Shown here: positions 9,190-63,629 of the stretch, one piece after another
Numbering within the stretch: position 1 is the first letter of the stretch
How the letters are laid out: each line of letters begins with the position of its first letter
NCBI GenBank assembly: GCA_951812955.1
Contig: OX638340.1
Span: forward strand, 3,392,001 to 3,456,000
Source of the DNA: an uncultured Gemmatimonadota bacterium
Lineage (GTDB): Bacteria > JAAXHH01
Length of the DNA: 64,000 bases
Direction of reading: 5' to 3'
Made by a program: the position numbers and the translations under genes
The notes under the pieces: model-generated
Databases searched by the model: none
What the model saw: the letters and a program-made list of their open reading frames with translations, nothing else
Told to the model about the DNA's origin: nothing

Positions 9190-9327
9190 TTGGACTCCAT
9201 GACTGCCTGACTGCCGGACAATGGGTTCCCACGCTTCGCCCGCCCGATCCTCAAAGGTGCGAACGCGGTACACTAAAGACGCAAGCGCGGTACACTACAG
9301 CACGAGCGCGGTACATTCAGTAACCGA

Positions 9328-9939
9328 TCATTGCATCCTGGTCAGCGCGTCCCGGGCATTGAGATAGGGTACGGATCGCTCCAGGAACGTTTCAACCAGG
9401 TGACCGGGCGTGAGTTCGGAAGTATCGATGTCGAACTTTCGTTTGATCCAGGACTGCGCGACTTCCTCTTCGAACCGTTCCAGGACGTGCGGCACGTCCT
9501 CCGATGGAACCAACTGGCGTGGATGGGGATCCTGCTCCATGCGCCGCCGGATCACCTCGGGACGTGCGTGAAGATGGACCAGGATCGCGTCGCCGGGCAT
9601 GTCCGGTTCGTACTCACGCACCGCGATATTGATCCCCGGATAATAGTAACAGGGACCGTACACCATCTCCTCGATATGGAACCCGCCCAGGAGGATGTGG
9701 TCGAACTTGTGCATCAGCCGGACGTGGTACACGATCTGGAACCGCTGAAACCGTTCCTTTATGGCCGGCAGCATGTCGATGAAGCCCTGCTGCTCCTCCT
9801 CGTCGAGGTGGTAGGCGTCCGGGATGGTGAAGTGGTCGTCCAGGTGGTGATGAACGCCCCGCTCGTTCCCCCAGTTGTAGAGGCCGTCGATCAGCGTCGT
9901 GACCCCCGAGTATTCGCAGCCTGCGGCGATCAACCGCAT
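9328..9939 (-). CDS. Hypothetical protein. The N-terminal AGCEYSGVTTL resembles a sulfotransferase/P-loop PAPS-binding motif, but this is weak.
   Basis: 203 aa ORF with balanced composition, set inside a tightly spaced co-directional gene array. No confident family assignment. Confidence 0.5.
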   Translation of the reverse strand: MRLIAAGCEYSGVTTLIDGLYNWGNERGVHHHLDDHFTIPDAYHLDEEEQQGFIDMLPAIKERFQRFQIVYHVRLMHKFDHILLGGFHIEEMVYGPCYYYPGINIAVREYEPDMPGDAILVHLHARPEVIRRRMEQDPHPRQLVPSEDVPHVLERFEEEVAQSWIKRKFDIDTSELTPGHLVETFLERSVPYLNARDALTRMQ

Positions 9940-9970
9940 GGACGCTCCTTTCGTCGATATCGGAATGGTT

Positions 9971-11089: not shown

Positions 11090-11122
11090 CCAGGACTCCC
11101 TGTTTGGGGCGAAAACGTCGCT

Positions 11123-12316: not shown

Positions 12317-12599
12317 GTAAGGTTTACCGCAAAAAGATGCGACGCGGGACGATGCCCGCGCCGTAGAACAGGGTTAACGTTCAATCTACATCGGCCCATG
12401 GGAATGTCAAGAGTGGGAAGACACAAATTGCGTCTTTGTTTGACTCTGAGCCGGCACCGCCCTGAGACTGCCGCGTGGACGGGTATTTCGTCTTGCAGGA
12501 AGCCCGCCGCGAAATTAGATTACGGTCCTGTAATTCAATAAACCCTGGTCCGGTTCGTTTCCACGAATACCGGTTTTCTTCCTTGTCGACGGAGTGCTC

Positions 12600-13205
12600 A
12601 TGGCGGTCCAGAAAGACTGGTGCCGGTTTGTCCTGCTGCTCATCGACGTCCAGCGGGATTTCTGGCCGGAGGAGACGGCCGAGTCTTTCCCCGATTTCCC
12701 GTCGAACGTCGAACGGCTGCTCGAATATTGCCGCGTTTCCGGTCTCGACGTCGTCCACGTGCGTGCGGATTTCGAACCGGACGGATCGGACTGGATGACG
12801 CCCTATCGGATTAAGGGGGAAACACCCTGCATACGCGGCACGCGGGGTGTGGAGGTGCTGCCCTGCGCCATGGAAATGGACGGCGAACCCGTCCTGCGCA
12901 AGCGGACCTTCGACGCCTTCCTTCAGCCGGACCTATTATCCCGTTTACATCGTGCGCGTAAATCCTATATACTGATTGCGGGACTTGAGACCTCCGTCTG
13001 CGTGCTTCTTACCGCTGCTTCCGCCGTACAGCACGGGTTCCTGGCCGCGGTCGTCGCGGACTGCTGCGCCGACGATCCCGCCAGGCACGAGGCGGTGGTA
13101 AACGGATATCCCTTCATGTTTGACCGCACTACCCTCGCCAGGCTCGAAACCGACCACGACCGCTGGATGGACATGCTGAACAAGCTGCAGCATGCCGGAG
13201 GATGA
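12600..13205 (+). CDS. Isochorismatase-family cysteine hydrolase
   Basis: [12 protein letters not shown]... is typical of the isochorismatase fold. GGAG lies 5 nt before the ATG at 12600. The track start at 12594 is an upstream GTG. Confidence 0.75.
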
Positions 13206-14248
13206 CCGTGAACCATTTGAATGTAGGGATCGTCGGCCTCGGCTGGGTGGCCGGGGCGCACATCGACGCCTTCAAGGCCGTGACCGGGGCCGACGTTACC
13301 GCCGTATGCTCCCGGAGGAACCATGACGACGCGGAACTTTCCGCGCAGTTCGGCACGCCGCTGAAGTCCTGTGTCGATTATGGCGATCTGCTCGCCGATC
13401 CCGACGTCCACGTGGTCGACATCTGCACGCCCCACCCCTTCCACGCCGACCAGGCCGTGGCCGCCGCGGAGGCCGGCAAGCATCTCATCATCGAGAAGCC
13501 CATTGCCCTGACTCCCACGGACGCCGTGCGCATCCAGTCCGCCGTCGAGAAGGCCGGGGTGTGTGTCTGCGTCTGTTTCGAATGCCGGTACAGCGCGCAC
13601 TTCACCATGATCCGGTCCGTCATCGACCAGGGGCTGCTCGGTGATCTACACTACGCCGAAGTCGACTACTACCATGGCATTGGTCCCTGGTACGGGCAGT
13701 ACGGCTGGAACGTGAAAAAGGACATGGGCGGGTCCAGCCTGCTGACGGCGGGGTGCCACGCCCTGGACGCCCTTCTGTTCTTCATGGACGGCAAGGTGGA
13801 GGAAGTCACCAGCTACAGCACGAAGTCCTCCAGCCCCCACTTCGCGCCGTACGAGTACGATACCACGAGTGTTTCCATCCTGAGATTCGAGGGCGGCAAG
13901 CGGATCGGCAAGGTGACCTCCAGCATCGACTGTCTGCAGCCCTACTATTTCCACGTGCACCTGGTAGGTAGCGAAGGAAGCCTGCTGGACAATCGGTTCT
14001 ATTCGCATAAGCTCGATGGTCTGGACCGCAGCCGTTGGAGCACGCTCGAGACCTCCCTGATCGATTCGGGCGACGTCCAGGATCACCCTTACGAACCCCA
14101 GTTCCAGGCCTTCGTCGACAGTATCAACGGAGGCGGACCCATGCCGCTCACGGACATGCATACCGCCTACGAGTCGCACCGCGTCGTCTTCGCGGCCGAC
14201 CGTTCAGCTGCGGAGGGCCGGTCTGTGCGCCTGGACGAGGTGGACTAG
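13202..14248 (+). CDS. Gfo/Idh/MocA-family NAD(P)-dependent oxidoreductase
   Basis: [17 protein letters not shown] Rossmann N-terminus. Overlaps the previous gene by ATGA. Confidence 0.8.
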
Positions 14249-45531: not shown

Positions 45532-47271
45532 GTGATCCTGGACATTGACCGCACAGGCAGGATAGTGGGCATCGGCAGCAACGTCATGGACGTGATCTAT
45601 CGGGTAAACCGAATCGCGGGACCGGAGGAAAAAACCTATATCCTGCCGAATGAACATGGCGCGGTCGTGACCGAGGTAACAGGCGGCGTGACGCTGAACC
45701 ATCTGGCGTGGACGGCCCAGATGGGCGTCCCCGCCGGTCTTTTTGGATTTCAAGGGGACGACCGGTTCGGCGCTATGATCCGGGACGAAATGGACCGCCA
45801 CGGTATCGATCGGTCGGCCGTTCGGGTCCTCGAGGGCCGCGCATCCGGTTTTTCGGTGGTGAACGTGGCCGACGACGCGGACCGGGCAATTTACATGGCC
45901 CGCGCTCTGACGGCGGAGACCTCGGCTGCGGACGTAGAGACGTATTTTGCCGGGTACATTTGTTCCGCCGCGATGGTGACGACGGAAATATCCCAACTCC
46001 CGCTGGACGCCGTTATCGCGGTCCTGCGCATAGCCCGCGAGGCTGGCGTGCCGACCGTGCTGGACGTGGACGTCCCGCCGGAATTCGCCACCGAAGTGGC
46101 CGGACTCGGTTCCGCCGAAGATTTCGAAGAGGCCCTGCGTCTCGCCGACGTCGTGAAACCCGCCAAGGCCGCCGCATCGCAGATAGCAGCAGCCGAGAGT
46201 TCAGAGGAACGGGCCGAGCGTATTTTCAACCGGTACGGCGCCCGGCTGGTGGCCATCACCGAAGGGGCGCAAGGTTCGGTCGTCACCGACGGGAAGCAGA
46301 CGATCCGCACGCCTGCGAAACCCGTGGAAGCCCGGGACACCACCGGCGCGGGAGATGCCTTTCTGGGCGGCCTGATTGCGGGTATATACCACGGATTTGC
46401 GTTACAGGACATCGCATCGCTCGCCAATGCCTGCGGCGCTGTATGTTGCCGCATCCCGGGGGCCTTCCCGCAACTGGGTTCGAGCCGGGACGACGTTATC
46501 AGCCTGTACGAAGGCACTCCGATTCCTGCCGGGACCGCATCGGAATCGGTTGCAGGTCCGGAACCTGGGATCATCCCGGAGTCGGGGATCGTCCCGCAGT
46601 CGGAGATCGTCCCGCAGTCGGGGGTTGTGACCGAAAGCCTTGACGATTCCGGTTCAGCGACCGCGGGTGCAGCCGGCCTGAATGCCGTGCGGCGGACCGC
46701 TGCCGCCCTTTCCGGACTGTATGACGGCATGTCTGACACCTACTTTGACGAAGCCGTCGCGATTATCCGGAAGGCAGAAGCGGCCGGCGGGCGCGTACAC
46801 GTCACCGGTGTGGGGAAGTCCCGGCACATCGGCCACAAGCTGGCGGCCACGCTGCAGAGCACGGGAACGAAGGCGTATTTCCTCGATCCAGTCGACTGCA
46901 ACCACGGAGACAGTGGACAGGTAGCGGAAGGGGACGTGGTCGTCGCCCTGTCTCACAGCGGGGAGACGGAGGAACTGATGGCAGCCGTTGAAACCCTCGC
47001 CGCGATCGGTGCGATACTCATCGCAATCACCGGGCACGCCGCATCCAGTCTGGCCCGTTCGAGTGCGGCGACCCTGCACGTTCCCGTTGACCGCGAAGGC
47101 GGTCCCCTGGGACTCGCGCCGACCGTGAGCACGTCCTGCCAACTCGCCGTGGCCGACGGACTCGCCATGGCCCTGAAGGCCTGCCGTGGGTTTACCCGGG
47201 AAGACTTCGCCCGGTACCATCCCGGCGGGCGTATTGGAAGGCAACTGCGGGACAGTGAAGCCGAAAACTGA
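45532..47271 (+). CDS. Fusion protein: N-terminal PfkB-family carbohydrate kinase plus C-terminal SIS (KpsF/KdsD-like sugar-phosphate isomerase) domain
   Basis: PfkB motif DTTGAGDAF in the N-terminal half. SIS motif VTGVGKSRHIGHKLAATLQSTGT...ALSHSGETEEL in the C-terminal half. The linker carries 15-nt tandem repeats (PESGIVPQSEIVPQSGVV). GTG start with an AGGTGA RBS. Confidence 0.75.
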   Translation: MILDIDRTGRIVGIGSNVMDVIYRVNRIAGPEEKTYILPNEHGAVVTEVTGGVTLNHLAWTAQMGVPAGLFGFQGDDRFGAMIRDEMDRHGIDRSAVRVLEGRASGFSVVNVADDADRAIYMARALTAETSAADVETYFAGYICSAAMVTTEISQLPLDAVIAVLRIAREAGVPTVLDVDVPPEFATEVAGLGSAEDFEEALRLADVVKPAKAAASQIAAAESSEERAERIFNRYGARLVAITEGAQGSVVTDGKQTIRTPAKPVEARDTTGAGDAFLGGLIAGIYHGFALQDIASLANACGAVCCRIPGAFPQLGSSRDDVISLYEGTPIPAGTASESVAGPEPGIIPESGIVPQSEIVPQSGVVTESLDDSGSATAGAAGLNAVRRTAAALSGLYDGMSDTYFDEAVAIIRKAEAAGGRVHVTGVGKSRHIGHKLAATLQSTGTKAYFLDPVDCNHGDSGQVAEGDVVVALSHSGETEELMAAVETLAAIGAILIAITGHAASSLARSSAATLHVPVDREGGPLGLAPTVSTSCQLAVADGLAMALKACRGFTREDFARYHPGGRIGRQLRDSEAEN

Positions 47272-47290
47272 AGGTTCAGGAAGGAACGCC

Positions 47291-48199
47291 ATGATTGCCG
47301 AAGCACCGAAAGCAAATACCGAAACACCCGAAATAAGACTGATCGCTTTCGATCAGGACGATACGGCCCTGCTGCCCGACGGCAAGCCCTCCTCCGAGGG
47401 TTTGGCCGCCATCGAAGCCGCTCTCGACCAGGGACTGATCGTGAGCTCCGTGAGCGGCCGCAACATAGATCGCAGCGGCGAGCCCTTCAGCGGCGCTCGT
47501 CAGCTGTTCGACCGGCTCTACCTGATCGCCAACAACGGCGGGATCATACTCGGGCCAGCCGAAGGGGGCCGAAGACCGCTGCTGTTCGAAAAGCGCATGT
47601 CTACCGGCGCTTTCCTGGACCTGCTCGACTTCATCGAAGAAAACGGTTTCAATTTCGTATACAGCTGGCTGCGCGTGACGGAGGCCGGTCCCCTGGACAG
47701 CGTAATAGCCGACCGGTATACTCCGTCCATCGCAGCCATAGAGGAGCAGAGCCGCGCCGCCGTCGACCGGGACGACGACCTGCTGGCGAAACTGAGACAG
47801 GGCGCATACCCGCCGCCGCCCAAGATGCTGATTCTTCCAGGCCTGGAACGGCGCGAGGCGGTGCTGTCGGAGTTGAAGGCCCGTTTCGACTCCCGTCTCT
47901 ACCTCGTCAAGACGAATCCGGACCGGATCGAAGCCATGCACGCCGACGTCAACAAGAAGGTCGCCGTGGAGTTCATCGCGCGCGAGCACGGAATATCCCT
48001 CAATAACGTGATGGCAGTCGGGGACGGCGACAACGACCTGCCCATGCTCTTCAACGCGGGCCTGGGGGTGATCATGGAAAACGCCCAGGACGCGGTCAAA
48101 GAAGCGGGCCGGGCGCAAGGTCTGGTCATTGCTCCGCCGAACCACGAGAACGGCTTTGCCTGGGCGGTACGTCGATACGCGTTAAACAACGGCCGTTAA
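47291..48199 (+). CDS. Cof-type HAD-IIB phosphatase
   Basis: IAFDQDDT...(DxD motif)...VMAVGDGDNDLPM. RBS AGGAAGG. The track ORF 47186 start is an upstream extension. Confidence 0.8.
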   Translation: MIAEAPKANTETPEIRLIAFDQDDTALLPDGKPSSEGLAAIEAALDQGLIVSSVSGRNIDRSGEPFSGARQLFDRLYLIANNGGIILGPAEGGRRPLLFEKRMSTGAFLDLLDFIEENGFNFVYSWLRVTEAGPLDSVIADRYTPSIAAIEEQSRAAVDRDDDLLAKLRQGAYPPPPKMLILPGLERREAVLSELKARFDSRLYLVKTNPDRIEAMHADVNKKVAVEFIAREHGISLNNVMAVGDGDNDLPMLFNAGLGVIMENAQDAVKEAGRAQGLVIAPPNHENGFAWAVRRYALNNGR

Positions 48200-52458: not shown

Positions 52459-52684
52459 GATCGTGCATACTAAGCCCCCCGAAGGCGCCGTGTCAAGTTA
52501 CTCCTCCGGTCTCGAGATCCTGGCGGCGGTGTGATCACATCTCTGGAGAATCCGGGATCGTTGACATGGTTCATACAGCCGTCTATATTCCGTTCGCTTG
52601 CCGATACACACCTTAGTGAACAAGCGAAAGTGAATAAGCGGATCCTTCGCGGAATCGAATTCAATAAGTTTCAGAGAGGAGCCT

Positions 52685-53776
52685 TTGATGTCCACGGTCT
52701 ATCGCGTCGGCATAATCGGGTGCGGCAGCATCTCGCACCTCCACATGAAGGGATACCTGGGCGAAGAGCGGTTCGAGGTCGTCGCACTATCGGACCCGGT
52801 TGCCGAGGCCAGGAAGGATTTCGGTGACCGCTACGGAATCGAAAAACGCTATGCCGATGTCCGTGAGATGATGGACACCGAGGGCCTGGACGTCGTCAGC
52901 ATCTGCACCTGGCACAAGCTGCACGCCCCCCTGACCATCGCCGCCTGCGCGCGTCGGCCGAAGGCCATCCTGTGCGAGAAGCCCATGGCCGTCAACATGG
53001 GGGAGTGCGACGAGATGATGATCGCGGCGCGGCGGAACGACGTGAAGCTCGCCATCGCCCACCAGCGCCGTTTCAATCCGGTCTGGACCGACGCCCGGAA
53101 CCTGGTGGCGGAAGGGGCGATCGGCGACGTGCGCCACGTCCACTGCAGTGGCAGCCAGGGCCTGCTGAACGACTGCTCCCACATGTTCGATTTCATGCGC
53201 TACGTCCTGGGCGATCCCGCGCCGGAGTGGGTGATGGGGAACATCGAACGCAAGACCGACCGGTACGAGCGGGATATCCGCATCGAGGACCGCAGCGCGG
53301 GAATCGTGGGCTTTGACAACGGCGCCGTGGGACAACTCCTGCAGGAGCTTCATCCGGAACGCCGCCAGGGCGGTTACCTCTACGGAACTGACGGCATGAT
53401 GGACGTGAACGAGCAGCGCGTTCTGCTTATCAATTCGAAGACCGGCGGCTGGGAGGAACGGCCGTCCACCGGCGAGGATCCGAGTGTGGGCCAGGCCGTG
53501 GAACTGGCTGACTGGATCGAAGGCAAGTCGGAACACCGGGGAGAGGCCTCGAACGGCCGGGCTGCCGTGGAGATCATCATGGGGATCTACGAGTCGGCGC
53601 GGCTTCACGAGGTCGTCCAGATGCCCGTGCGCACCCACAGTTCGCCCATCGAGGAAATGCTCGAGGCTGGCGACCTGCCCGTGGAACGCCCCGGCCGGTA
53701 CGACATTCGCGCCTTCCTCCTGCGCGGGGAGTCCATGCAGGGTGAGGAGCCGGACGAAGAAGATGAGGAAGAATGA
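52685..53776 (+). CDS. Gfo/Idh/MocA-family oxidoreductase
   Basis: RVGIIGCGSISHLHMKGY Rossmann N-terminus and an acidic C-terminal tail. Confidence 0.8.
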   Translation: MMSTVYRVGIIGCGSISHLHMKGYLGEERFEVVALSDPVAEARKDFGDRYGIEKRYADVREMMDTEGLDVVSICTWHKLHAPLTIAACARRPKAILCEKPMAVNMGECDEMMIAARRNDVKLAIAHQRRFNPVWTDARNLVAEGAIGDVRHVHCSGSQGLLNDCSHMFDFMRYVLGDPAPEWVMGNIERKTDRYERDIRIEDRSAGIVGFDNGAVGQLLQELHPERRQGGYLYGTDGMMDVNEQRVLLINSKTGGWEERPSTGEDPSVGQAVELADWIEGKSEHRGEASNGRAAVEIIMGIYESARLHEVVQMPVRTHSSPIEEMLEAGDLPVERPGRYDIRAFLLRGESMQGEEPDEEDEEE

Positions 53777-53789
53777 CCGGTCACGGTCC

Positions 53790-53868
53790 CGTGACCACGC
53801 TCAGACCGACGAGACCCGCGACCACGCTCAGACCGACGAGGCCCGTGACCACGCTCAGCAGGGCGAAG
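53790..53868. repeat. Tandem repeat, 27-nt unit in 3 copies, intergenic
   Basis: CGTGACCACGCTCAGACCGACGAGACC-like units at 53790, 53817 and 53844. Confidence 0.75.
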
Positions 53869-53930
53869 TTCGATCCGAGGCGGATATCGGCGGAGCAGGC
53901 GACGGTGCACAGATCGGCGAAGCACGCAAA

Positions 53931-54929
53931 ATGGCGGAGATCGGCCGAACGGGGTTGATGGTCAGCCGCCTGGGTCTGGGCGGCGCACCGCTGGCCGGTC
54001 TGTACCAGGGGGTTTCCGACGAGCAGGCCTCCCGGGTTGTGAACACCTACCTCGATCACGGCCCCGGATTTATCGACACGGCCCCGCTCTACGGCAGCGG
54101 CGTGAGCGAGACAAGGTTGGGCGCCGTACTATCGGAGCGAGTCCGCAATGCGCGCGTATTCTGCGACGGTCGCGGTTCCTTTGTGCTCGCCACCAAGGTG
54201 GGCCGCCTCCTCGTGCCCGACCCGGCGCGGGACCAGGACGTGTGGTCTGAGGATCTCCCGCCCGTCGGCCCCGTCTTCGACTACAGCTACGACGGCACGC
54301 TACGGTCTCTCGATGAGAGTCTCGCTCGCCTTGGCCTGGATAAGGTGGATATCCTCCATATCCACGACCCGGACAACCACTACGATGAGGCGATGAGGGG
54401 CAGCTACCGGGCGCTCGTAAGAATGCGCGACGAGGGAGTCATCCGGGCGGTCGGCGTTGGCATGAACCAGGCGAAAATGCTGGCCCGTTTTTCCCAGGAA
54501 GGTGACTTCGACTGTTTTCTTTGTGCGGGCAGATACACCCTGGTGGACCACACGGCGCTCAAGCGGCTGCTGCCCCTGTGCGAAGAACGCAAGATCAGCC
54601 TCATTATCGGCGGGCCCTACAACAGCGGCATCCTGGCGCAGGGCGCTGTGGAAGGGGCGAAGTTCGATTACCGGAAAGCACCGCCCGGGATCGTGGAGCG
54701 GGTTCGTCGCGTCGAAACGGTGTGCGGCCGCCACGGCACGCCCCTGAAGGCGGCGGCGCTGCAGTTCCCCCTGGCCCATCCAGCGGTGGCAGCGGTCATT
54801 CCGGGTGCGCGTTCGCCTGAGGAAGTGGATGAGAACGTGGCGATGGCGGAGTTTGAGATTCCGGCGGATTTCTGGGCGGAACTTCGACAGGAAGGGTTGA
54901 TCCCTGACGAGGCGCCCACGCCCGGATAG
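53931..54929 (+). CDS. Aldo/keto reductase family oxidoreductase
   Basis: MAEIGRTGLMVSRLGLGGAPL... N-terminus. The track ORF 53484 start is a long Arg-rich spurious extension. Confidence 0.8.
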   Translation: MAEIGRTGLMVSRLGLGGAPLAGLYQGVSDEQASRVVNTYLDHGPGFIDTAPLYGSGVSETRLGAVLSERVRNARVFCDGRGSFVLATKVGRLLVPDPARDQDVWSEDLPPVGPVFDYSYDGTLRSLDESLARLGLDKVDILHIHDPDNHYDEAMRGSYRALVRMRDEGVIRAVGVGMNQAKMLARFSQEGDFDCFLCAGRYTLVDHTALKRLLPLCEERKISLIIGGPYNSGILAQGAVEGAKFDYRKAPPGIVERVRRVETVCGRHGTPLKAAALQFPLAHPAVAAVIPGARSPEEVDENVAMAEFEIPADFWAELRQEGLIPDEAPTPG

Positions 54930-55128
54930 TGAAGTAGGTCGCATGTATATCTAAAAACGCGGAAAAATATATTGTCAATATTGATGAAAATAACAATCAA
55001 CCTATAAATCCGGTTTTGATATATATGAGGGACGCCCCTCGCCACGGTCCGCTGCCGGTAGTGTGCGCCTCGCGCCCGGCTGGCTCCGTGCCCCTCAGTC
55101 CGCGAAACGCACTTGAAAGGAGATCCCA

Positions 55129-55485
55129 ATGACCGCATCTGAGAACGCATCTGAAGCCACTCCCCAACGCTATGGCATGGTCCTCAAGGTCAAGCCTGAC
55201 CGGATCGAGGAATACAAGGCATACCACGCCGAGGTCTGGCCCGGCGTTGCGAAGAGGATCACGGAAAGCAACATCACCAACTACTCCATCTATCTGAAGG
55301 ACGATTACCTCTTCTCCTATTTCGAGTACGTCGGGGACGATTTCGAGGCGGACATGGCTAAAATGGCCGCCGACCCGGTCACGCAGGAGTGGTGGGACGT
55401 GATGATGCCGATGCAGGACCCCCTGCCAACGCGGAAGGAAGGCGAATGGTGGGCGAATATGGAGGAAGTCTTTCACCAGGATTGA
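55129..55485 (+). CDS. rhaM: L-rhamnose mutarotase (RhaM/DUF718 family)
   Basis: MVLKVKPDRIEEYKAYHAEVWPGV...YSIYL...EWWDVMMPMQ. RBS AAAGGAGA. Confidence 0.75.
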   Translation: MTASENASEATPQRYGMVLKVKPDRIEEYKAYHAEVWPGVAKRITESNITNYSIYLKDDYLFSYFEYVGDDFEADMAKMAADPVTQEWWDVMMPMQDPLPTRKEGEWWANMEEVFHQD

Positions 55486-55778
55486 GTACAAACACTTCCC
55501 AGACGGACTTTCATATGTTCGTTCGTCTTAGACCGTTGCCAATGAACCGATTGTCGATTATGTTTTCGGGTACTACCCATCCGGTATTGTTTGAGAAATA
55601 ACAGTCCGGTATTGTGCGAGTACTACTCATCCGGCATCGTGCGAGTAATTCTTTTCAGGTATTGAATGAACGCACCAATGATAAGGTTTGAGAAAAGTTA
55701 ATGATGAGATTAAAGAAGAGTTTTAAAAGAAAACTCAGGATATCATAGGAAAACATAGGAGAACATAGGAGAACGTCC

Positions 55779-56672
55779 ATGGCCCTGACTGAAGCGCAAC
55801 TGGCTGAATTCCACGACCGCGGATTGGTGGTCGTGGAAGACGTGCTGGCCGACGCCGATCTCGATCCCGTGATCGACGCGATGACGGAGTATGTCGACCT
55901 GCAGGCACGGAAACTGCAGGCCGAGGGCAAGATCGCCGACCTGCATGAAGACGAACCCTTCCTGACACGATACGCCCGGTTGTTCGCCCAAAGCACGGAG
56001 ATCGGCCACGGGATGGATATCTACGACCTGCGGGCGAAGGCGGTCTTCGATTTCCTGCGGAACGACAACCTGCTCGACGCCGTGGAATCCCTGGTGGGAT
56101 CCGAAATCACCTGCTCGCCGATCCAGCACCTGCGGGCCAAGCCGCCGTCCCGCCTTGACGCCAGCCCGTCCTATAACGTGCCCTGGCACCAGGATTCCGG
56201 GGTGAGCTGGGCGGAGTCCGACAAGACCCTGGCGCTGACCTGCTGGCTGCCCCTCGTGGACGCCACGGTGGAGCGGGGCTGCCTGGAGGTGATCCCGGAC
56301 GTGATCAAGGTCGGCCATCTCGACCACGTGTCGGACGCCGGAACGCGTATAAAACCGGACCTCATGCCCGAGACCGAAGCGCTACCGGCTGAAGTGCGCA
56401 AGGGCGGGGTCGTTTTCCTGAGCCAGTATACACCGCACCGTTCGACGCCCAACCTGACGCAGTGGGATGTGCGCTGGAGCCTTGACCTGCGGTACGTGGC
56501 CTACGGTGAGCCGACTGGGCGGCCCTTCTTTCCCGATTTCTGCGTGCGGAGCCGCACCCATCCTGAACGGGTCCTGACCGATCACCAGGTCTGGGCCGAC
56601 AGCTGGGTCGCGGCCCTTGAGGAACAAATACGCAATCCCAAGCAGGCCCACCGTGTCGCCCAGGAACCCTGA
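55779..56672 (+). CDS. PhyH-family Fe(II)/2-oxoglutarate dioxygenase, paralog 4
   Basis: EFHDRGLVVVEDVL... and the PWHQD iron motif. Confidence 0.8.
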   Translation: MALTEAQLAEFHDRGLVVVEDVLADADLDPVIDAMTEYVDLQARKLQAEGKIADLHEDEPFLTRYARLFAQSTEIGHGMDIYDLRAKAVFDFLRNDNLLDAVESLVGSEITCSPIQHLRAKPPSRLDASPSYNVPWHQDSGVSWAESDKTLALTCWLPLVDATVERGCLEVIPDVIKVGHLDHVSDAGTRIKPDLMPETEALPAEVRKGGVVFLSQYTPHRSTPNLTQWDVRWSLDLRYVAYGEPTGRPFFPDFCVRSRTHPERVLTDHQVWADSWVAALEEQIRNPKQAHRVAQEP

Positions 56673-56940
56673 GGACACCTGATCCAAGAGGCACACCATG
56701 CTTTGAGGCCTGACCTCAGGCGCCAGGTTCGGCGCCCTTCTCGGCAGTCTGATCATTCCCGGTCTGGGACAGTTGTACCAGGGTCGCAGGCCGGCCGCGG
56801 TCATACACTTCATCCTCGCGGTCGTGATCTGGTTGATCGGCTACGGCTGGATCGTTCATCTGTATTCCGCGGTCGACGCGGCATTTCAGGCACCGCGCGG
56901 CGAAGGCTGCAAAACGTAAACCTTACAGTCCTGGTTACGG

Positions 56941-57056
56941 TGAACGCATCGGCGCCCGCCGGCAGGGGTGCGCGTCTCTGATCGCATCGGCGCCCGCTGG
57001 CAGGTGCGCGTCTATGAACGCATCGGTGCTCGCCGGCAGGGGTGCACGTCTGCGAA
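56941..57056. repeat. Tandem repeat, ~37-nt unit in 3 copies, intergenic upstream of the NHL-repeat gene
   Basis: GAACGCATCGGCGCCCGCCGGCAGGGGTGCGCGTCT-like units at 56941, 56979 and 57015. Confidence 0.75.
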
Positions 57057-57098
57057 CCATAAACCAGACAAACCACATTCAACAGGAAGAGGTCATGC

Positions 57099-57965
57099 AT
57101 GAGTTTCGGTAACGGGGCCTACAGGTACGAGGTGCAGGAAAACTGGTGGAAGCTTCCTGAAGGGTGGTCCTTCGGATGGATAACCGGAGTCGCCTGCGAT
57201 TCAAAGGACCAGGTGTACGTCTATTCCCGAAGCGAGCATCCCCTGGTGGTCTTCGACCGCGACGGAACGTTTGTCAAGACCATCGGCGACGGCATACTGA
57301 AGGACGCTCATGGTATATACATCGACGGAGAGGACAACATCTTCCTGGTCGACTGGCTGGACCACTGCGTCCGCAAGTTCGACGCGGACGGGAACCAGGT
57401 CCTGGTGATTGGCACGCCCGGTGTTCCGAGCGACAACGACGGTGATCCTTTCCGCAAGCCGACGGAAGCGGTCGTCGCGCCGAACGGAGATATCTACGTG
57501 TCCGACGGGTACGACAACGCCCGGGTACACCGGTACGACGCCGAAGGGAACCACATCCACTCCTGGGGCAGCTGGGGTGACGGCCCCTCCCAGTTCGCGC
57601 TGAGCCACTGCGTCCGCATTGACCGGCATGACCGGCTGTGGGTGTGTGATCGTGAAAACCAGCGCATCCAGCTATTCGACCTGGAAGGCAAGTTTATCGA
57701 GGAGCGACACGTTCCTGGCAAACCCGACACCGTCTACTTTGATCCGGTAGAAGATATAGCGTACGTGGCCGAGCTGGAACAACAGGTGGGTATCTACACC
57801 CTGGACGGCGACCTGGTCAGCAGCTGGGGCGGCGGTAAGCGGAGCGATCGGCCGGGCGAATTCGCCGGCTGTCCCCACGGCATCTGGATGGACTCCCACG
57901 GCGACCTCTATGTCGGCGAAGTTCAGGCCGACGCCAGGCTGCAGAAGTTCGTGAGATCGAGGTAA
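57099..57965 (+). CDS. NHL-repeat beta-propeller protein
   Basis: Repeated ...G.F..P.G.A.D..G..YV.D..N.R...D motifs over 288 aa. Confidence 0.75.
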   Translation: MSFGNGAYRYEVQENWWKLPEGWSFGWITGVACDSKDQVYVYSRSEHPLVVFDRDGTFVKTIGDGILKDAHGIYIDGEDNIFLVDWLDHCVRKFDADGNQVLVIGTPGVPSDNDGDPFRKPTEAVVAPNGDIYVSDGYDNARVHRYDAEGNHIHSWGSWGDGPSQFALSHCVRIDRHDRLWVCDRENQRIQLFDLEGKFIEERHVPGKPDTVYFDPVEDIAYVAELEQQVGIYTLDGDLVSSWGGGKRSDRPGEFAGCPHGIWMDSHGDLYVGEVQADARLQKFVRSR

Positions 57966-58070
57966 TTAGGCAATCGAGGACACTCGGCGACCGAGGTAAT
58001 CCGGCAATCGAGGACACTCGGCGATCGAGGTAATTCGGCAATCGAGGACACTCGGCGACCGAAGTAATAC
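57955..58070. repeat. Tandem repeat, 33-nt unit in about 3.3 copies, beginning at the NHL gene stop codon
   Basis: CGAGGTAAT(T/C)(A/C)GGCAATCGAGGACACTCGGCGAC units at about 57960, 57993 and 58026. Confidence 0.8.
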
Positions 58071-58210
58071 GTGCGATCGGGGGAATACGCAGTACGGTTC
58101 CGGTCGACGAGTCCTCAGGTCCTACAGATTCCCTTCTGGCCCTGCAATTCCACGTAGCAGATCCCTTCTAGGTTTAGACCAGGATTCACCAAAACCTCCG
58201 GCTGCTGGAA

Positions 58211-60613
58211 ATGACCGATACTGACGAACGACATCGTGATACCCGCACGGACCGAGACCGGCTCGTGAGGCTGAGCCAGGCCAGTCTGCGCATAAGCGAA
58301 AGCCTGGATGTCGATACCGTGCTGCACGAGGTCGTGGAGAGCGCGTGCGAATTAACGGGTGCCGCAGCCGGGGGGATCGTCGCGGTGGATCACACAGGAA
58401 GTGTAAAGGATTTCGTTACGTATGGGGTGCGTCCCGAGGAGTACCAGAAGTGTCTTGACCTGCCGATCGGACCGAGATTGTGGGAAACCCTTCGCCGGTT
58501 GACGCAACCGCTAAGAATCAACGACCTTTCGTCCCATCTCGTATCGCAGGGTTTTCCTGACGATCCATGGCTGGCCCGGAGCTTTCTGGGTGTGCCTGTT
58601 CGGCATCAGGGCGATTTCATCGGATTCTTCTGTCTTACCGACAAGAGAGCTGGTGAGACCTTCACTGACGAAGACGAGGGGATCCTGGTCCTGTTCGCTT
58701 CTCAGGCCGCCGCCGCGATTGTCAATGCCCGCAGGCATGGCGAAATGCAGCGGGCAAGGGCCGACCTCGAAGTTTTGATCGACACCTCTCCCGTGGGTGT
58801 AGTGGTATTCGATGCCAGAACCGGAAAAATAACATCGTATAACCGGGAGACGCAACGCATTGTGGAGGAGCTCCTGGATCCTGGCCAGCCGACCGAAGAA
58901 CTAATGGACATACTCAGTGTGCAGCGCGCCGATGGACGTGAGATCGTGCTGGAGGACTCCGATCCGGCCGAGGTGTTCATGGACGCCACGGCGATCCGGG
59001 CCGAGGAGATTGTCCTCGTCGTTCCGGACGGACGAAAAATATCCACGCTGGTCAACGCCACCCCGATCTGCACCGAAAAGGGCGAGGTGGAGACGGTGGT
59101 CGTCACCTTGCAGGACATGACGTCCCGGGAGGACCTCGAGCGCATGCGTACCCAGTTCCTGGGCATGGTGAGTCACGAACTGAGAGCGCCGCTTACGTCG
59201 ATCAAGGGTTGCGCGGCTACTGCGTTGGGGACCCCGTCGATACTGGATCCGGCCGAGGTCCGGCAGTTTTTCCGCATCATCGATGAACAGGCGGATAACA
59301 TGCGTGAACTGATCGGCGACCTGCTGGATGCGGTCCACATCGATACAGGCACACTGTCTGTAACCCCGGAACCTGTGGAACTGGCTATCATGCTGGACCA
59401 GGCCCGTAACATGTACTTGAGCAGCGGAAGGAGAAGTCCGGTCAGTGTTGATCTGCCGGCTGATCTGCCGAAGGTGAAGGCGGACCGGCAGCGCGTCATA
59501 CAGGTGCTGGTGAATCTCCTATCCAATGCCTCCCGGCACGCGCCCGAGTCGTCTACGATACGGGTACAGGTGGTGCAGGAAGACTACCATGTAGCAATTT
59601 CAGTAATCGACGAGGGCCGGGGGATACCAGAGGATCGCCTGCCCCACCTGTTCCAGAAATTCGTTCAAAGTGGCCGGGAGGACCGCGGCCGCGGCGTAGG
59701 GGAGGGCCTCGGGCTGGCGATATGCAAGGGTCTGGTAGAAGCGCATGGTGGCCGAATCTGGGCTGAAAGCGAAGCCGACGGACTCGGCACGCGATTCACG
59801 TTTACTTTACCCGTGGTTGAAGTGGCCAAAGCAGAATTCGAAGTGACTTCAACAGGGCCCGAAGTGACTTCAACAGGGTCCGAAGTGACTTCAGCACGGG
59901 AGAAAGAGGGCAAGGATCGGAGAGTCCGGCATACGCCTTGCATACTCGCGGTGGATGACGATCCGATGGCTCTGGGACAGATCCGGGAGATCCTCAAGGG
60001 CGCGGGATTCACGCCACTTATCACGGGAGATCCCAAAGAGGTGCCGGACCTGATAGAAACCCGTCAGCCCGACCTGGTACTGCTGGATCTGCTGCTGCCG
60101 AAGAGCGATGGGATCGAACTGATGCAAAGCGAGCCTGCCTTGGCTGATCAGCCGGTCATCTTCCTGTCGGCGTACGGCCGGGACGAGACCATAGTCAAGG
60201 CCCTGGAAGTGGGTGCGGTCGACTACATAGTCAAGCCGTTCTCACCGTCGGAACTCGTGGCCAGGATACAGTCGGCACTTCGTAAGCATGACAGCGCGCC
60301 AGAGCCATTTCAGTCCGGCAGTCTCTATATCAACTATGAAGAACGGAATGCCGTTCTGGATGGCCGGCCACTGAAGCTGACCGCCACCGAGTACGGTCTG
60401 CTCAGGTTGCTTTCAGTCAACGCGGGTCGGGTGGTCACCCATGACAAGCTGCTACGTAGTGTGTGGCGGTCGAGTAAACCTGGTGACGCCCGGGTGGTGC
60501 ACGCGTTCGTGAAGAAACTCCGCCAGAAGCTGGGCGATGAAAGCAGCAATCCTACCTACATTTTCACCGAACACCGGGTTGGCTACCGAATGGCACGACC
60601 GGATGATGCATAA
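58211..60613 (+). CDS. Hybrid signalling protein: GAF, PAS, HisKA/HATPase_c, receiver, and OmpR-type winged-helix DNA-binding domain
   Basis: H-box SHELRAPLTSI, an ATP lid (...GLGLAICKGLVEAHGG), receiver Asp (VLLDLLLP...) and a C-terminal trans_reg_C (YIFTEHRVGYRM). An in-frame 21-nt x3 repeat (EVTSTGP) lies between the kinase and receiver. Confidence 0.85.
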   Translation: MTDTDERHRDTRTDRDRLVRLSQASLRISESLDVDTVLHEVVESACELTGAAAGGIVAVDHTGSVKDFVTYGVRPEEYQKCLDLPIGPRLWETLRRLTQPLRINDLSSHLVSQGFPDDPWLARSFLGVPVRHQGDFIGFFCLTDKRAGETFTDEDEGILVLFASQAAAAIVNARRHGEMQRARADLEVLIDTSPVGVVVFDARTGKITSYNRETQRIVEELLDPGQPTEELMDILSVQRADGREIVLEDSDPAEVFMDATAIRAEEIVLVVPDGRKISTLVNATPICTEKGEVETVVVTLQDMTSREDLERMRTQFLGMVSHELRAPLTSIKGCAATALGTPSILDPAEVRQFFRIIDEQADNMRELIGDLLDAVHIDTGTLSVTPEPVELAIMLDQARNMYLSSGRRSPVSVDLPADLPKVKADRQRVIQVLVNLLSNASRHAPESSTIRVQVVQEDYHVAISVIDEGRGIPEDRLPHLFQKFVQSGREDRGRGVGEGLGLAICKGLVEAHGGRIWAESEADGLGTRFTFTLPVVEVAKAEFEVTSTGPEVTSTGSEVTSAREKEGKDRRVRHTPCILAVDDDPMALGQIREILKGAGFTPLITGDPKEVPDLIETRQPDLVLLDLLLPKSDGIELMQSEPALADQPVIFLSAYGRDETIVKALEVGAVDYIVKPFSPSELVARIQSALRKHDSAPEPFQSGSLYINYEERNAVLDGRPLKLTATEYGLLRLLSVNAGRVVTHDKLLRSVWRSSKPGDARVVHAFVKKLRQKLGDESSNPTYIFTEHRVGYRMARPDDA

Positions 60614-60892
60614 AGAGTGGATTTTCGACGAACTGAAGTGTGAATTACCGACAACGTAATGTGTGGATTTACGACGGAACGCACTTCTTTGAATACGATC
60701 AGTCCATTACGGCATCGGGCCGCTCCTCCTGACCTGTCGATGCACCTTTCCTGCTGGAAGCTATTTCACCGGTAATTGTCTTTCCATGTGGCCCCCTCAC
60801 TTTCTCCTTGATAATATCCCTGCCGTTTCATCATTTTAGCTATTCGTTTTTGACACTCCATTGATACTCCTGACTCCAGTATAGGGGCGTTC

Positions 60893-61723
60893 ATGCGTAT
60901 CATCGACCCCCACACCCACGTCTGGATCAACGACCCCGCCTTTCCCTGGCCGGCGGAAAGTACAGGCCAGGTCCCCGAGGACAGGACGGCGGAGATGCTC
61001 CTTGACCTGATGGACCGTCACGGCGTGGAGAAGACTGTCCTGGTTCAGTATATCGGATTCCGATGGGACAACTCGTACGTGTCCCACGTTCTGCGCAAGT
61101 ACCCCGACAAATTCGCTGGGGTCTGCCGCGTCAATCCCGAAGATCCGGCCGCGCCGGACCACCTGAGCCACTGGGTGGAAGAACACGGATTCCAAGGGGT
61201 GCGGCTCAGCCCCTCCGCGGGACCGGAAGGAGACTGGTTCACGGGTCCCCTCATGCCGCCGATCTTCCGGCGCGCCGAGGACCTTCGTGTACCACTGCTC
61301 ATGCTCACGCGTCCCGGACGTCTTACGGACCTGGCCCGGCTTTTGGACCGCTTTCCGGATCTCGACGTGGTCGTGGACCACATGGCCGACGCGCGCCCCG
61401 ACCGTCCGGAGGAGATCCGGGCCGTCCTCGACCTGGCGCGGTACCCTAACGTCTACGTGAAGATCAGCCATACGTGGTCCATTTCGAATCAGGACTATCC
61501 CTGGCCGGACACCCATGACATGGTCGAGGCGGTATACCAGGCCTTCGGAGGACGCCGTATCATGTGGAGCACCGACTGGCCTGTCTGCCTCCCGAAGGCC
61601 GATTACGGCCAGACCCTTTCCGTCGTCCGCGACGAGATGCGGTTCATCTCACCTGAAGATCTGGTCCGCGTGCTGGGTGGCACGGCCCTGGGGCTGTGGA
61701 CCTTCGAAGATCGGAAGGCCTGA
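60893..61723 (+). CDS. Amidohydrolase-2 family metal-dependent hydrolase (sugar lactonase / LigI-like)
   Basis: IDPHTHVW...HxH N-terminus and a TIM-barrel hydrolase pattern. Confidence 0.75.
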   Translation: MRIIDPHTHVWINDPAFPWPAESTGQVPEDRTAEMLLDLMDRHGVEKTVLVQYIGFRWDNSYVSHVLRKYPDKFAGVCRVNPEDPAAPDHLSHWVEEHGFQGVRLSPSAGPEGDWFTGPLMPPIFRRAEDLRVPLLMLTRPGRLTDLARLLDRFPDLDVVVDHMADARPDRPEEIRAVLDLARYPNVYVKISHTWSISNQDYPWPDTHDMVEAVYQAFGGRRIMWSTDWPVCLPKADYGQTLSVVRDEMRFISPEDLVRVLGGTALGLWTFEDRKA

Positions 61724-61850
61724 AGTGATCAATCGGCCAGGGGCACGATTCCAGGGCACGCTGCCGGGCCGCATGCGGAATGGTCACCGCGTGAACCTTG
61801 ATTATATTAGTCGGAAGAGTCATGGCAGTTCTCGAATAAAAAACTTAAAA

Positions 61851-61874
61851 CCGCAGAAACTGCGGCATTTTCGG
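61851..61874 (+). terminator. Candidate Rho-independent terminator after the amidohydrolase gene
   Basis: CCGCAG-aaa-CTGCGG hairpin followed by cATTTTcgg. Confidence 0.45.
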
Positions 61875-62013
61875 TATCCGCAGCAACTTTAGCATCTGGA
61901 GTACCAGTAGCATCCGCGTGAACCGCGTGAACCGCGTCAACTGCGGCACCTGTAGCAACCACGGCATCGATAGCATATGATGAACGCACGATATCACGCT
62001 CAAAGGAGTACCC

Positions 62014-62781
62014 ATGAATATCCTGATCACCGGCGCCGCGAGCAGGCTGGGACAAGCGGTGGCCGAGGCCCTTCAAGGCCACATGCTTCGCCTCATGGAC
62101 GAGTCGCCCGTCGACCTGCCCGGGGAGGGCGATACCGTCGACGTGCCTGCGGAAAGCGATTCCGTCGAAGGCAGCCTGCTGGACCAGGACTTCGTATGGC
62201 GGGCGGTCCGCGGCATGGAAGCCGTCATCCACACGGGCGAGCCTCCTCAGGACCTTCCCGAGTCCGACGTGGAGCGCGAGAAGCACCTCCTGGAACTGGC
62301 TACGAGGGGCACCCACCAGCTCTTCAAGGCCGCTGTGGAGGTCGGCGTCAAGCGCTTCGTCTACGGCGGAACCCTCGACCTCTTCCGGCCCTATCCCGAC
62401 GATGTTTACATCAGCGAGCTTTGGAAGCCGCTGCCCGAACCGGACATGCCGGCCATGTCCCGCTATCTGGGAGAGCACACCGCCCGGGAATTCGCCCGGG
62501 ACTACATGGTGACGGTCACGGGGCTTCGTCTGGGGACGCTGGTCTGCGAGGAGGAAGTCGCCGGCCAGGCGCCCGACCTGCTGTGGCTGGACTACCGCGA
62601 CGCCGCCCAGGCCTTCAAACTGGCCCTGGAGCGCGACGCCTCGGACCAGGTATGGTGGACGAGCCGTTACGCCATTTACCACGTCTGCGCCGACCTGGAG
62701 AATCCGAAATACCTCATCAACCAGGCCCGCAACCTCGGCTACGCGCCGGTCCACAACTTCGCCGCAAACTGGAAGGACTGA
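62014..62781 (+). CDS. NAD(P)-dependent epimerase/dehydratase-family (atypical SDR) protein
   Basis: MNILITGAASRLG Rossmann motif. RBS AAAGGAG. Confidence 0.75.
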   Translation: MNILITGAASRLGQAVAEALQGHMLRLMDESPVDLPGEGDTVDVPAESDSVEGSLLDQDFVWRAVRGMEAVIHTGEPPQDLPESDVEREKHLLELATRGTHQLFKAAVEVGVKRFVYGGTLDLFRPYPDDVYISELWKPLPEPDMPAMSRYLGEHTAREFARDYMVTVTGLRLGTLVCEEEVAGQAPDLLWLDYRDAAQAFKLALERDASDQVWWTSRYAIYHVCADLENPKYLINQARNLGYAPVHNFAANWKD

Positions 62782-62906
62782 GGCGCGGCAACGGAAATGA
62801 AATCCCGGAGCGGCCATGGCCTGCCGGTCGTTGTAACCGGCCGTAGTAAACGGTAGTTGCACCGGCCGCGCTAGTCCGGCGTTTCAACAATCGTGAGGAG
62901 ACGTAC

Positions 62907-63629
62907 TTGAAGAAAATCCTGCTGCTTGGCGCGTCCGGACTCATCGCGCCACATATCATCCCTGTGCTTGAGAAGGATTACGACCTGCGGCTGGCCGACA
63001 TCAAGGACCATCCGGACGGAAAACCGATCCAAACCGTGGACGTGCGCGACTACGGCCAGGTGCGTGAGGCCGTGGAGGGCATGGACGCGGTCATGAATTT
63101 CACGGTCCTGCGCCATGACGACACGCTCAGTTTTCAGGTCAATACCATCGGGGCGTGGAACGTCATGAAAGCGGTGGCCGACGCCGGCATCAAGAAAGTG
63201 ATCCATACCGGTCCAGCCCAGACGCTCCTGTTGTATGCCCATGATATGGACGTCCCGGTCGACGCTCCCGACGCGCCGTCCAGCGACTACTACTTCATCA
63301 CCAAGCATCTTTCAAACGAGATCGTCCGGAGCTTCGCCCGGCGGCACGAAATCCACACGGTCTGCTACCTGTTCCAGGGCCTGGCGCCCCGGCCGACTGA
63401 ACCCGCCAGCAAAACGTCGACCCGGGACTTCCTCATCATCTATGACGACCTGGCCGTGGCCTGCCGCCAGGGACTCGAACTCCCTTCGGTGCCCGGCTTC
63501 TACCAGGCGTTCAACCTGCACAGCCATTACGGGCCGGGCAAGTACAACCTGGAAAAGGCAGAGCGCATCCTGGGATACGCCCCGCAGGAGGCCTGGTGGG
63601 ATTGGCAGCGGAGGCCGACGGAAGATTGA
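62907..63629 (+). CDS. NAD(P)-binding epimerase/dehydratase-like (atypical SDR) protein, second paralog
   Basis: KILLLGASGLIAPH. TTG start with a GAGGAG RBS 6 nt upstream. Confidence 0.7.
   Translation: MKKILLLGASGLIAPHIIPVLEKDYDLRLADIKDHPDGKPIQTVDVRDYGQVREAVEGMDAVMNFTVLRHDDTLSFQVNTIGAWNVMKAVADAGIKKVIHTGPAQTLLLYAHDMDVPVDAPDAPSSDYYFITKHLSNEIVRSFARRHEIHTVCYLFQGLAPRPTEPASKTSTRDFLIIYDDLAVACRQGLELPSVPGFYQAFNLHSHYGPGKYNLEKAERILGYAPQEAWWDWQRRPTED

Follow-up and report, generated by a model that had tools for sequence, protein, structure and literature searches.

The window analysed here is a stretch of 64,000 nucleotides (GC ~62%) from contig OX638340.1 of assembly GCA_951812955.1, assigned to an uncultured Gemmatimonadota bacterium. 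Our subject is the run of genes at 52685-63629, which encodes sugar-oxidising and lactone-cleaving enzymes and, in their midst, a single-chain sensor-regulator. From domain content, homology ranking, synteny, insertion and residue conservation we read this region, with about even confidence, as a neighbourhood conserved within its lineage that holds the upper half of a fucose-type route together with accessory enzyme units, the regulator being a recent arrival. A first-pass annotation had presented the same genes as completing a non-phosphorylative L-fucose/L-rhamnose pathway under the control of that regulator. Its gene list was sound: all nine listed open reading frames (ORFs), among them the Gfo/Idh/MocA oxidoreductase (Gfo; PF01408/PF22725) and the aldo/keto reductase (AKR; PF00248), were recovered with their domains and coordinates in a Pfam scan, the source of all our domain calls. 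Its interpretation survived only in part, failing on pathway completion, on rhamnose, on a resident controller and on a 4-dehydrogenase.

The conservation of the neighbourhood was evident from tblastn searches, in which the order Gfo, AKR, FucM-type mutarotase, PhyH dioxygenase, NHL propeller, amidohydrolase, SDR, SDR, lactonase and acyl-CoA synthetase (ACS) recurred, at 82-97% identity, in about 22 genome loci (loci are cited below by number, as in L002). The same order was found in a second lineage at 67-86% identity and in several metagenome loci. Gfo, at 86-97% identity across the syntenic loci, is the most conserved protein of the cluster; its listed start is TTG, with an ATG one codon later. 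The last two genes lie beyond the end of the window, where the near-identical contig L001 continues with a PF10282 lactonase, a 785-aa ACS and Big_2/LRR proteins. A third lineage (L072, L073, L077 and L079; GC 53%) carries a compact version with short spacers, in the order AKR, possible cytochrome c (below the Pfam cutoff), FucM, unknown protein, PhyH, sulfatase, UxaA/GarD-family dehydratase (minus strand), NHL, SGL lactonase, amidohydrolase, enolase-family dehydratase, NanM-like Kelch protein, SDR and SDR. The case for catabolism of sugar acids, possibly those of sulfated glycans, draws its strongest support from this compact cluster.

Three enzymes bear on which sugar is oxidised. The mutarotase had been labelled RhaM, and the family domain is indeed present, but within this superfamily the protein is far closer to the fucose type: it matched the L-fucose mutarotase structures 7BYW/7BYU over its full length (125 bits, ~53% identity), against only 33-36 bits for L-rhamnose mutarotases, and it fell below the NCBIfam YiiL equivalog cutoff (53 vs 99.6). 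The rhamnose half of the earlier proposal is not supported: the two enolases of the window also scored just 110 and 31.5 bits against an L-rhamnonate dehydratase cutoff of 393 bits, and the non-phosphorylative L-rhamnose set (LRA1-4: mutarotase, LRA1-type SDR and L-rhamnonate dehydratase) was not matched by the window proteins. Translation of the AKR most likely begins at the ATG at 53931, since the part of the ORF upstream of it is a 27-nt tandem repeat spacer. Among solved structures, the protein comes closest to the L-galactose dehydrogenases of plants (7EZI, 8SCC and 7LH6; 100-114 bits), and the AKR tetrad was read by eye, from the sequence without a reference alignment, as D49/Y54/K89/H133-135. 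On this homology it is a candidate aldose 1-dehydrogenase of the L-fucose/L-galactose type.

The third enzyme, the amidohydrolase-2 protein, retains the motifs H7-x-H9, D162-H163 and D228. PF04909 and the HxH/Asp residues agree with the lactonase fold proposed for it, but its score against the L-fucono-1,5-lactonase equivalog was 59 bits for a cutoff of 400 (NCBIfam), and the comparison that had been called for, with the BmulJ_04915-type lactonase (4DLF), placed that enzyme no closer than LigI or 6UVZ, all three being equally remote. We consider the protein an unassigned relative of the L-fucono/L-rhamnono-lactonase group, and a candidate aldonolactonase. Homologues 65-72% identical to it occur in Poribacteria, Chloroflexi/Anaerolineae, Zixibacteria and Opitutales, in varied contexts (L027-L061) and without conserved neighbours, and this high identity across phyla suggests that the gene has spread horizontally or is under strong constraint. 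The neighbourhoods in other phyla mostly said little about function; the exceptions were L006, in which the homologue adjoins enolase, DHDPS and SGL genes, and loci with sulfatase genes nearby (L048/L049; two Poribacteria loci).

The combination of a fucose-type mutarotase, an AKR resembling L-galactose dehydrogenase (L-GalDH) and a PF04909 protein makes an upper module for L-fucose-type sugars plausible, the predicted substrates having the L-fucose, L-galactose or D-arabinose configuration. In such a module the FucM-type mutarotase would supply the right anomer, the AKR would oxidise C1 to give the lactone, and the amidohydrolase would open the lactone to the aldonate. Gfo, a pair of SDRs resembling uronate dehydrogenase (Udh) followed by the lactonase and ACS, and PhyH with an NHL protein resembling peptidyl-alpha-hydroxyglycine alpha-amidating lyase (PAL) would be further units alongside it. 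The features of the region are collected in the table.

Table. Features of the window, with lipoprotein-gene insertions at the corresponding loci of sister genomes
Feature	Position	Strand	Family or basis	Length or remark
Gfo/Idh/MocA NAD(P)-dependent oxidoreductase	52685-53776	+	PF01408/PF22725	363 aa
AKR, candidate aldose 1-dehydrogenase	53931-54929 (ORF 53484-54929)	+	PF00248	332 aa from ATG
AT-rich promoter/operator-like element upstream of mutarotase gene	54975-55009	+	spacer alignment	
FucM-type L-fucose mutarotase (RhaM superfamily)	55129-55485	+	PF05336	118 aa
PhyH-family Fe(II)/2-oxoglutarate dioxygenase	55779-56672	+	PF05721	297 aa
Six-bladed NHL beta-propeller with PAL-like active-site pattern	57099-57965	+	PF01436	
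Strain-specific insertion with regulator gene	57960-60790 (right end ~60790)	+	blastn	~2.8 kb
GAF-PAS-HisKA-HATPase_c-REC-Trans_reg_C regulator (OmpR/PhoB winged helix)	58211-60613	+	Pfam	800 aa
Amidohydrolase-2 protein, candidate aldonolactonase	60893-61723	+	PF04909	276 aa
Udh-like compact extended SDR, partner 1	62014-62781	+	PF01370 'Epimerase' family	
Udh-like compact extended SDR, partner 2	62907-63629	+	PF01370	canonical Y129xxxK133
First cluster	1-14248			FAH, TPP enzyme (PRK08266-type), 2-hydroxyacid dehydrogenase, isochorismatase, second Gfo, three PhyH, two enolase-superfamily genes
Partial aldehyde dehydrogenase (ALDH), off window start	1 to ~880	-	HpaE-like	
Tandem repeats, examples	53788-53858; 55570-55647; 56941-57051; 57958-58068; 60611-60676			
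Lipoprotein-gene insertions in sister genomes	L012 4156-6708; L016 2108-5686, 12656-16675; L017 5743-7095; L023 1264-7239			

The architecture described for the regulator, GAF-PAS-HK-REC-OmpR on a single polypeptide, was confirmed by Pfam, and its motifs are intact (H322 in the H-box, the N, G1 and G2 boxes, D626 and K675). The protein is cytoplasmic, having no transmembrane segment N-terminal to GAF. If functional, it would respond to a ligand in the cytoplasm, with phosphorylation of the receiver domain on the same chain and DNA binding as a dimer. Its proposed role as resident controller of the cluster was not supported. By blastn, in L008 and L009, whose cluster proteins are 88-97% identical to those of the window, the spacer between the NHL and amidohydrolase genes measures only ~110 nt, and to the right of the insertion the window still has the ~100 nt that ancestrally preceded the amidohydrolase gene. 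Tandem repeats are found at the left edge of the inserted segment (34-nt x 3.3) and past the stop codon (23-nt x 2.9), and the GC content at third codon positions is 0.67 in the regulator gene against 0.77-0.85 in the neighbouring genes. The insertion was found only in the window, L001 and L065, three near-identical strains of which L001 and L065 come from one sample, and more than 25 syntenic relatives lack the regulator there. Several spacers of this lineage take up foreign genes, and in one of them the regulator gene is a recent insertion.

Elsewhere the same architecture is common, with at least 120 clusters of full-length homologues of about 785 aa. A homologue 61% identical to the regulator lies in an unrelated context in Ca. 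Palauibacter, and in L017 and L024 paralogues lie a few kb past the downstream end of the cluster. Among described systems, the nearest in concept are the hybrid two-component systems (HTCS) of Bacteroides (PMC11253607), which likewise join sensor, histidine kinase, receiver and DNA-binding output on one chain. In contrast to these, the regulator has cytoplasmic GAF and PAS domains instead of a periplasmic sensor and membrane segments, its output is an OmpR/PhoB winged helix rather than AraC, and it is not conservedly adjacent to the genes that would be its targets. A literature search on HK-REC-OmpR fusions returned nothing specific. Separately, in L077 (6401-7809) a 250-aa HisKA-HATPase_c ORF just upstream of the NHL gene is followed by a 131-aa ORF with a weak, sub-threshold match to a 'two-component regulator propeller'; these ORFs may be remnants of another two-component sensor.

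AT-rich spacers, which had been suggested as binding sites for the OmpR domain, do exist. When the AKR-mutarotase spacers of relatives were aligned, a block of ~70 nt of AT-rich sequence was conserved while the flanking GC-rich repeats varied. In the window this block holds a perfect 10-bp palindrome (TCAATATTGA, 54975-54984) and TATAAAT at 55003-55009. As the block is present in relatives without the regulator gene, it is older than the insertion, and on the same ground we rejected 54950-55100 as an OmpR target. It does not look like an OmpR-type direct repeat, and the palindrome is a candidate operator for a dimeric repressor. Alignments of the other upstream regions were too divergent to be read. 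With respect to putative transcription units, a scan for consensus promoters and terminators gave counts near shuffled expectation and a single strong promoter-like site, an 11/12 match at 52561-52589 upstream of the Gfo gene.

Tandem repeats were also rejected as regulator sites. Repeats of 9-66 nt occur across the whole window, mostly in spacers (41 rows in the TRF output), and are therefore no special mark of this cluster. Two lie in frame, one in the regulator linker (59839-59893) and one in the first SDR (62108-62168), where it falls in a surface loop. Even near-identical strains differ in copy number, the 23-nt repeat being largely gone in L065.

The bacterial non-phosphorylative L-fucose pathway uses FucM, L-fucose 1-dehydrogenase, the L-fucono-1,5-lactonase BmulJ_04915 and L-fuconate dehydratase, and ends with either an aldolase or a 2-keto-3-deoxy-L-fuconate (KDF) 4-dehydrogenase and a hydrolase (PMC11199699). 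The cluster resembles it in having a mutarotase 53% identical to the FucM type, a candidate C1-oxidising dehydrogenase and a PF04909 amidohydrolase, and its relative L072 has, in addition, a UxaA-family dehydratase, an enolase-family dehydratase and a sulfatase. It differs from the published pathway in that an AKR resembling the L-galactose dehydrogenase of plants, not a classical SDR, is the candidate for the dehydrogenase, in that the candidate lactonase scores far below the L-fucono-1,5-lactonase equivalog, and in its extra PhyH, PAL-like NHL, Gfo and Udh-like SDR-pair genes. Further, no dehydratase, 4-dehydrogenase, hydrolase or aldolase was found among the ORFs of 52685-63629; an L-fuconate dehydratase of either FucD or UxaA type is absent within the cluster, dehydratases appearing only in the relative L072. 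The route is not completed here, the cluster having no genes for the lower part, in which a dehydratase is followed by an aldolase or by a 4-dehydrogenase and a hydrolase.

Several observations weigh against the reading as a conserved fucose-type neighbourhood. The AKR scores only about 100-114 bits against the plant enzymes, and the bacterial L-fucose dehydrogenases characterised so far are, to our knowledge, classical SDRs. None of the cluster enzymes, Gfo included, reached an NCBIfam equivalog cutoff, and no transporter, fucosidase or dehydratase was found among the scanned ORFs of the window. The amidohydrolase subfamily turns up in many unrelated contexts. The spacers of the cluster are long in the window (125-430 nt), and in relatives the spacer between FucM and PhyH, or that between the second SDR and the lactonase, has taken up unrelated lipoprotein genes. 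The inserted lipoproteins (200-2000 aa) share similar N-termini ('...ACGKDSPT.P...') and were likened, by the N-terminus alone, to the annotated Big_2/LRR proteins downstream in L001; the cluster region is a hot spot for the insertion of such genes. Finally, the upstream flank (EamA, PfkB-SIS and HAD) is syntenic too, so the conserved order may partly reflect general collinearity rather than function. In this flank (45532-48199), the gene for a PfkB kinase with a fused KpsF/GutQ-type SIS domain precedes that for a Cof-type HAD phosphatase; in lineage L002/L025 their immediate neighbour is the Gfo gene, from which they are separated in the window clade by two inserted genes, a MetH-like/MTHFR fusion and a DUF2339 gene.

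Many of these points are equally expected if there is no single pathway, and the region is a collinear mosaic of independent units: Gfo-AKR, FucM, PhyH, NHL, amidohydrolase, and the SDR pair with lactonase and ACS. The length and variability of the spacers, the insertion of unrelated Big_2/LRR-type lipoprotein genes and of the regulator between cluster genes in different relatives, the solitary occurrence of the amidohydrolase and of the SDR pair in other phyla, the synteny of the flanking genes and the promoter-like element that FucM has for itself all agree with it. We nevertheless hold this explanation to be unlikely, if the best placed of the alternatives, given that the same families stand together in three lineages with GC contents of 53-62%, that they are tightly packed with dehydratases and a sulfatase in L072/L077, and that in distant lineages, too, the NHL gene has PhyH, AKR and Gfo genes for company.

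Another group of results concerned the two SDRs, which had been described as atypical. This is borne out by partner 1, which has Y151xxxH155 in place of YxxxK. Among its 120 homologues Y151 was invariant in 119/120 sequences, and position 155 was occupied by Leu in 100, His in 11 (the residue of the window clade), Gln in 5 and Arg in 2. Partner 2, by contrast, keeps YxxxK in all orthologues and in the distant pairs. The two proteins are 24% identical to each other, and their genes are directly adjacent in three unrelated genomes (L067, L068 and L069), with anything from a 4-nt overlap to an 86-nt gap and with all other neighbours different; the gene pair is conserved across phyla. This suggests a heteromer with one non-canonical subunit, in which partner 2 would probably be the catalytic subunit.

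For both SDRs the best NCBIfam match was Azf, an NAD-dependent glucose-6-phosphate dehydrogenase, at 66 bits (over the full length of partner 1) and 35 bits (partner 2) for a cutoff of 400. PDB matches at E<=0.001 were all extended-SDR 'epimerase'-type proteins, with 25-38 bits for uronate dehydrogenases, and partner 2 matched the Udh 6MFH at E=1.8e-8. An AlphaFold (AF2) model of partner 1 (pLDDT 90.4) had as best size-matched folds the Udh structures 3RFT, 3AY3 and 6MFH (TM-score 0.70-0.74, about 20% identity). Like Udh (3RFT, 3AY3) and haloarchaeal Azf, which both oxidise C1 to a lactone, the pair has the compact extended-SDR fold of about 250 residues (TM about 0.7); there is YxxxK in the second SDR, as in Udh, and a lactonase gene follows downstream. 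The differences are the low identity of about 20%, with scores far under the family cutoffs, and the organisation as a two-gene pair in which one partner has Leu, His, Gln or Arg instead of the catalytic Lys. The Udh/Azf-like fold, the predicted subunit pairing and the loss of Lys therefore make these proteins candidates for a heteromeric C1-oxidising dehydrogenase. Of the two activities proposed earlier, sugar 1-dehydrogenase and 2-keto-3-deoxy-acid 4-dehydrogenase, the second, a classical-SDR type, was not supported, the matches being Udh/Azf-like and of the extended-SDR class only.

These results leave room for a different substrate class, in which the SDR pair would act on uronates or sugar phosphates and make a lactone, to be opened by the lactonase past the window end, possibly together with the NHL protein or the amidohydrolase. 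That lactonase is a 6-phosphogluconolactonase-like propeller (185-210 bits), the SDR pair, lactonase and ACS genes are spaced by 16, 92 and 0 nt in lineage L002, and the L072 cluster contains a GarD-like dehydratase, all of which, with the Azf and Udh matches, speak for this possibility. The scores nonetheless remain far from family level (66 and 35 bits vs 400 for the SDRs; 210 vs 500 and 185 vs 370 for the lactonase), the SDR pair occurs elsewhere without any lactonase, and the FucM-type mutarotase and L-GalDH-like AKR are left unexplained. We rank it behind the mosaic and likewise regard it as unlikely.

PhyH and the NHL protein form the remaining unit. The PhyH dioxygenase is, as had been counted, the fourth in the window (the others lie at 5235-6107, 7244-7990 and 11123-12316); its motif residues H137-x-D139 and H220 are present, and its solved relatives are weak matches, namely EvdO2, SnoN and SnoK, which act on sugar moieties. 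The NHL propeller that had been named next to it was recovered as PF01436, and was related to the PAL domain of PAM (3FVZ) with E=4.5e-21. In that alignment 'DAHGIYID' (H71) corresponds to PAL 'LPHGLSID', 'SDGYDNAR' (Y138) to 'SDGYCNSR', 'LSHCV' (H170) to 'VPHSL', and 'DRENxRIQ' (R185) to the identical PAL motif (DRENGRIQ). We take the PAL motifs aligned with H71 and H170 to hold two zinc-binding His of that enzyme, and place its catalytic Tyr and an Arg of the active site in those aligned with Y138 and R185. PAL's third His is taken to have its counterpart in H260, which lies in blade 6 outside the aligned stretch. All five residues were invariant in 49 NHL homologues, down to 24% identity. 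A single-sequence structural model of low confidence (pLDDT 64) had NHL propellers and PAL as its top folds, with Virginiamycin B lyase also among the structural neighbours. A whole-library search with the NHL protein was discarded, as giant NHL-repeat proteins swamped the result.

Homologues 54-60% identical to the NHL protein adjoin PhyH and AKR genes (L085, in the order PhyH-x-NHL-AKR, a distant lineage), an AKR gene (L091) or a Gfo gene (L090). From its residues and company, the protein is a candidate metal-dependent lyase or lactone-cleaving enzyme; it could be a lactone cleaver, or a PAL-like lyase acting after the PhyH hydroxylase. Common to PAL and the NHL protein are the six-bladed NHL propeller, the matching motifs and a gene beside that of a hydroxylase. 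The partner differs, being here an Fe(II)/2-oxoglutarate PhyH-type dioxygenase and in PAL a copper monooxygenase, and the NHL protein is cytoplasmic, bacterial and found in a sugar-acid context. A literature search on bacterial PAL-like enzymes returned nothing specific. Between the two genes, at 56773-56919, lies a short open frame encoding a hydrophobic peptide ('...GLGQLYQGRRPAAVIHFILAVVIWLIGYGW...') without a good full-frame start codon, which may be a decayed gene for a small membrane protein.

The most far-reaching interpretation of these accessory units is that PhyH and NHL form a bacterial 'hydroxylate, then cleave' pair, and that the Udh-like SDR pair is an undescribed heteromeric dehydrogenase with a lysine-less subunit; taken together, we think this improbable. 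By analogy, the first pair would correspond to the two halves of eukaryotic peptidylglycine amidating monooxygenase (PAM) with a hydroxylase of the Fe(II)/2-oxoglutarate type, would remove a substituent from a modified sugar or N-acyl compound of sulfated host or algal glycans, and the product would feed the AKR/lactonase oxidation route. More improbable still is a non-sugar role, in which PhyH, the PAL-like NHL protein, AKR and ACS would degrade an N-acylglycine-type or lactone-containing host metabolite by hydroxylation followed by lyase cleavage, the sugar-like enzymes being secondary. The invariance of the PAL-like residues, the L085 gene order, the ACS and thiolase genes downstream in L002 and the structural proximity of Virginiamycin B lyase are compatible with it. 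Set against these are the low confidence of the NHL model, the fact that the DRENxRIQ and xPHG motifs are partly general features of NHL repeats, and the FucM, L-GalDH-like and sulfatase/dehydratase context, which favours sugars.

Finally, the first cluster, at the opposite end of the window, had been thought to supply the missing steps. It does contain the two enolase-superfamily genes, the FAH and the partial ALDH that had been noted. However, the ALDH fragment matched HpaE with 439 bits over the 279 positions present, and the FAH passed the HpaG C-terminal cutoff (282 vs 276) and reached 156 of 500 bits for the L-rhamnonate-route hydrolase; this is the sole FAH, 51 kb from the cluster studied here. 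Enolase 1 was closest to the uncharacterised 2QQ6. L-rhamnonate dehydratases ranked about 46th (RhamD scores of 110-112 bits), and the 60 best matches listed included no chain that bears the name L-fuconate dehydratase. The HpaE/HpaG-type pairing is typical of aromatic meta-cleavage and not of a sugar route, to judge by these homologies, and the first cluster as a whole looks more like aromatic meta-cleavage or alpha-oxidation-type chemistry than like a sugar route. The stretch that separates the two clusters is taken up by unrelated genes, heptosyltransferase, phosphate-transporter, ABC-transporter and TonB-receptor genes among them. The L072 enolase shares only 32% and 27% identity with the two enolases of the window; it was rejected as their orthologue, and therefore provides no link between the clusters. 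That both clusters form one complete Sphingomonas/Burkholderia-type L-fucose/L-rhamnose route controlled by the regulator is thus the least probable of all the explanations weighed here: every enzyme family it named occurs in the window, the upper-module homologies favour fucose-type sugars and the L072 cluster embeds dehydratases, but the two clusters stand 38 kb apart on opposite strands, the ALDH and FAH are of the HpaE/HpaG type, enolase 1 is not FucD- or RhamD-like, the SDRs are Udh-like rather than classical-SDR 1- or 4-dehydrogenases, and the regulator is confined to three strains.

The closest genome records are metagenome-assembled genomes (MAGs) labelled Gemmatimonadetes or Ca. Latescibacterota, in which the amidohydrolase match is 83-94% identical, and many of them, judging by isolate names, come from sponge metagenome projects. 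The host is an uncultured sponge-associated bacterium, and the cluster sits in a plastic region of its genome. A literature search found no specific account of such a cluster in sponge symbionts. As the insertion illustrates, a regulator gene in the middle of a cluster cannot be presumed to control that cluster, and the large family of single-chain GAF-PAS-HK-REC-OmpR regulators is itself a target for discovery. Among the enzymes, the cross-phylum SDR pair with its lysine-less partner is a concrete discovery target, as is the PAL-like NHL family that travels with PhyH and AKR genes. Should the fucose-type upper module be real, its dehydrogenase would be of the AKR type and its lactonase would come from a subfamily that has no assignment so far. 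If the module oxidises L-fucose or L-galactose, it would show a phosphorylation-free use of fucose-rich sulfated glycans by abundant uncultured sponge symbionts.

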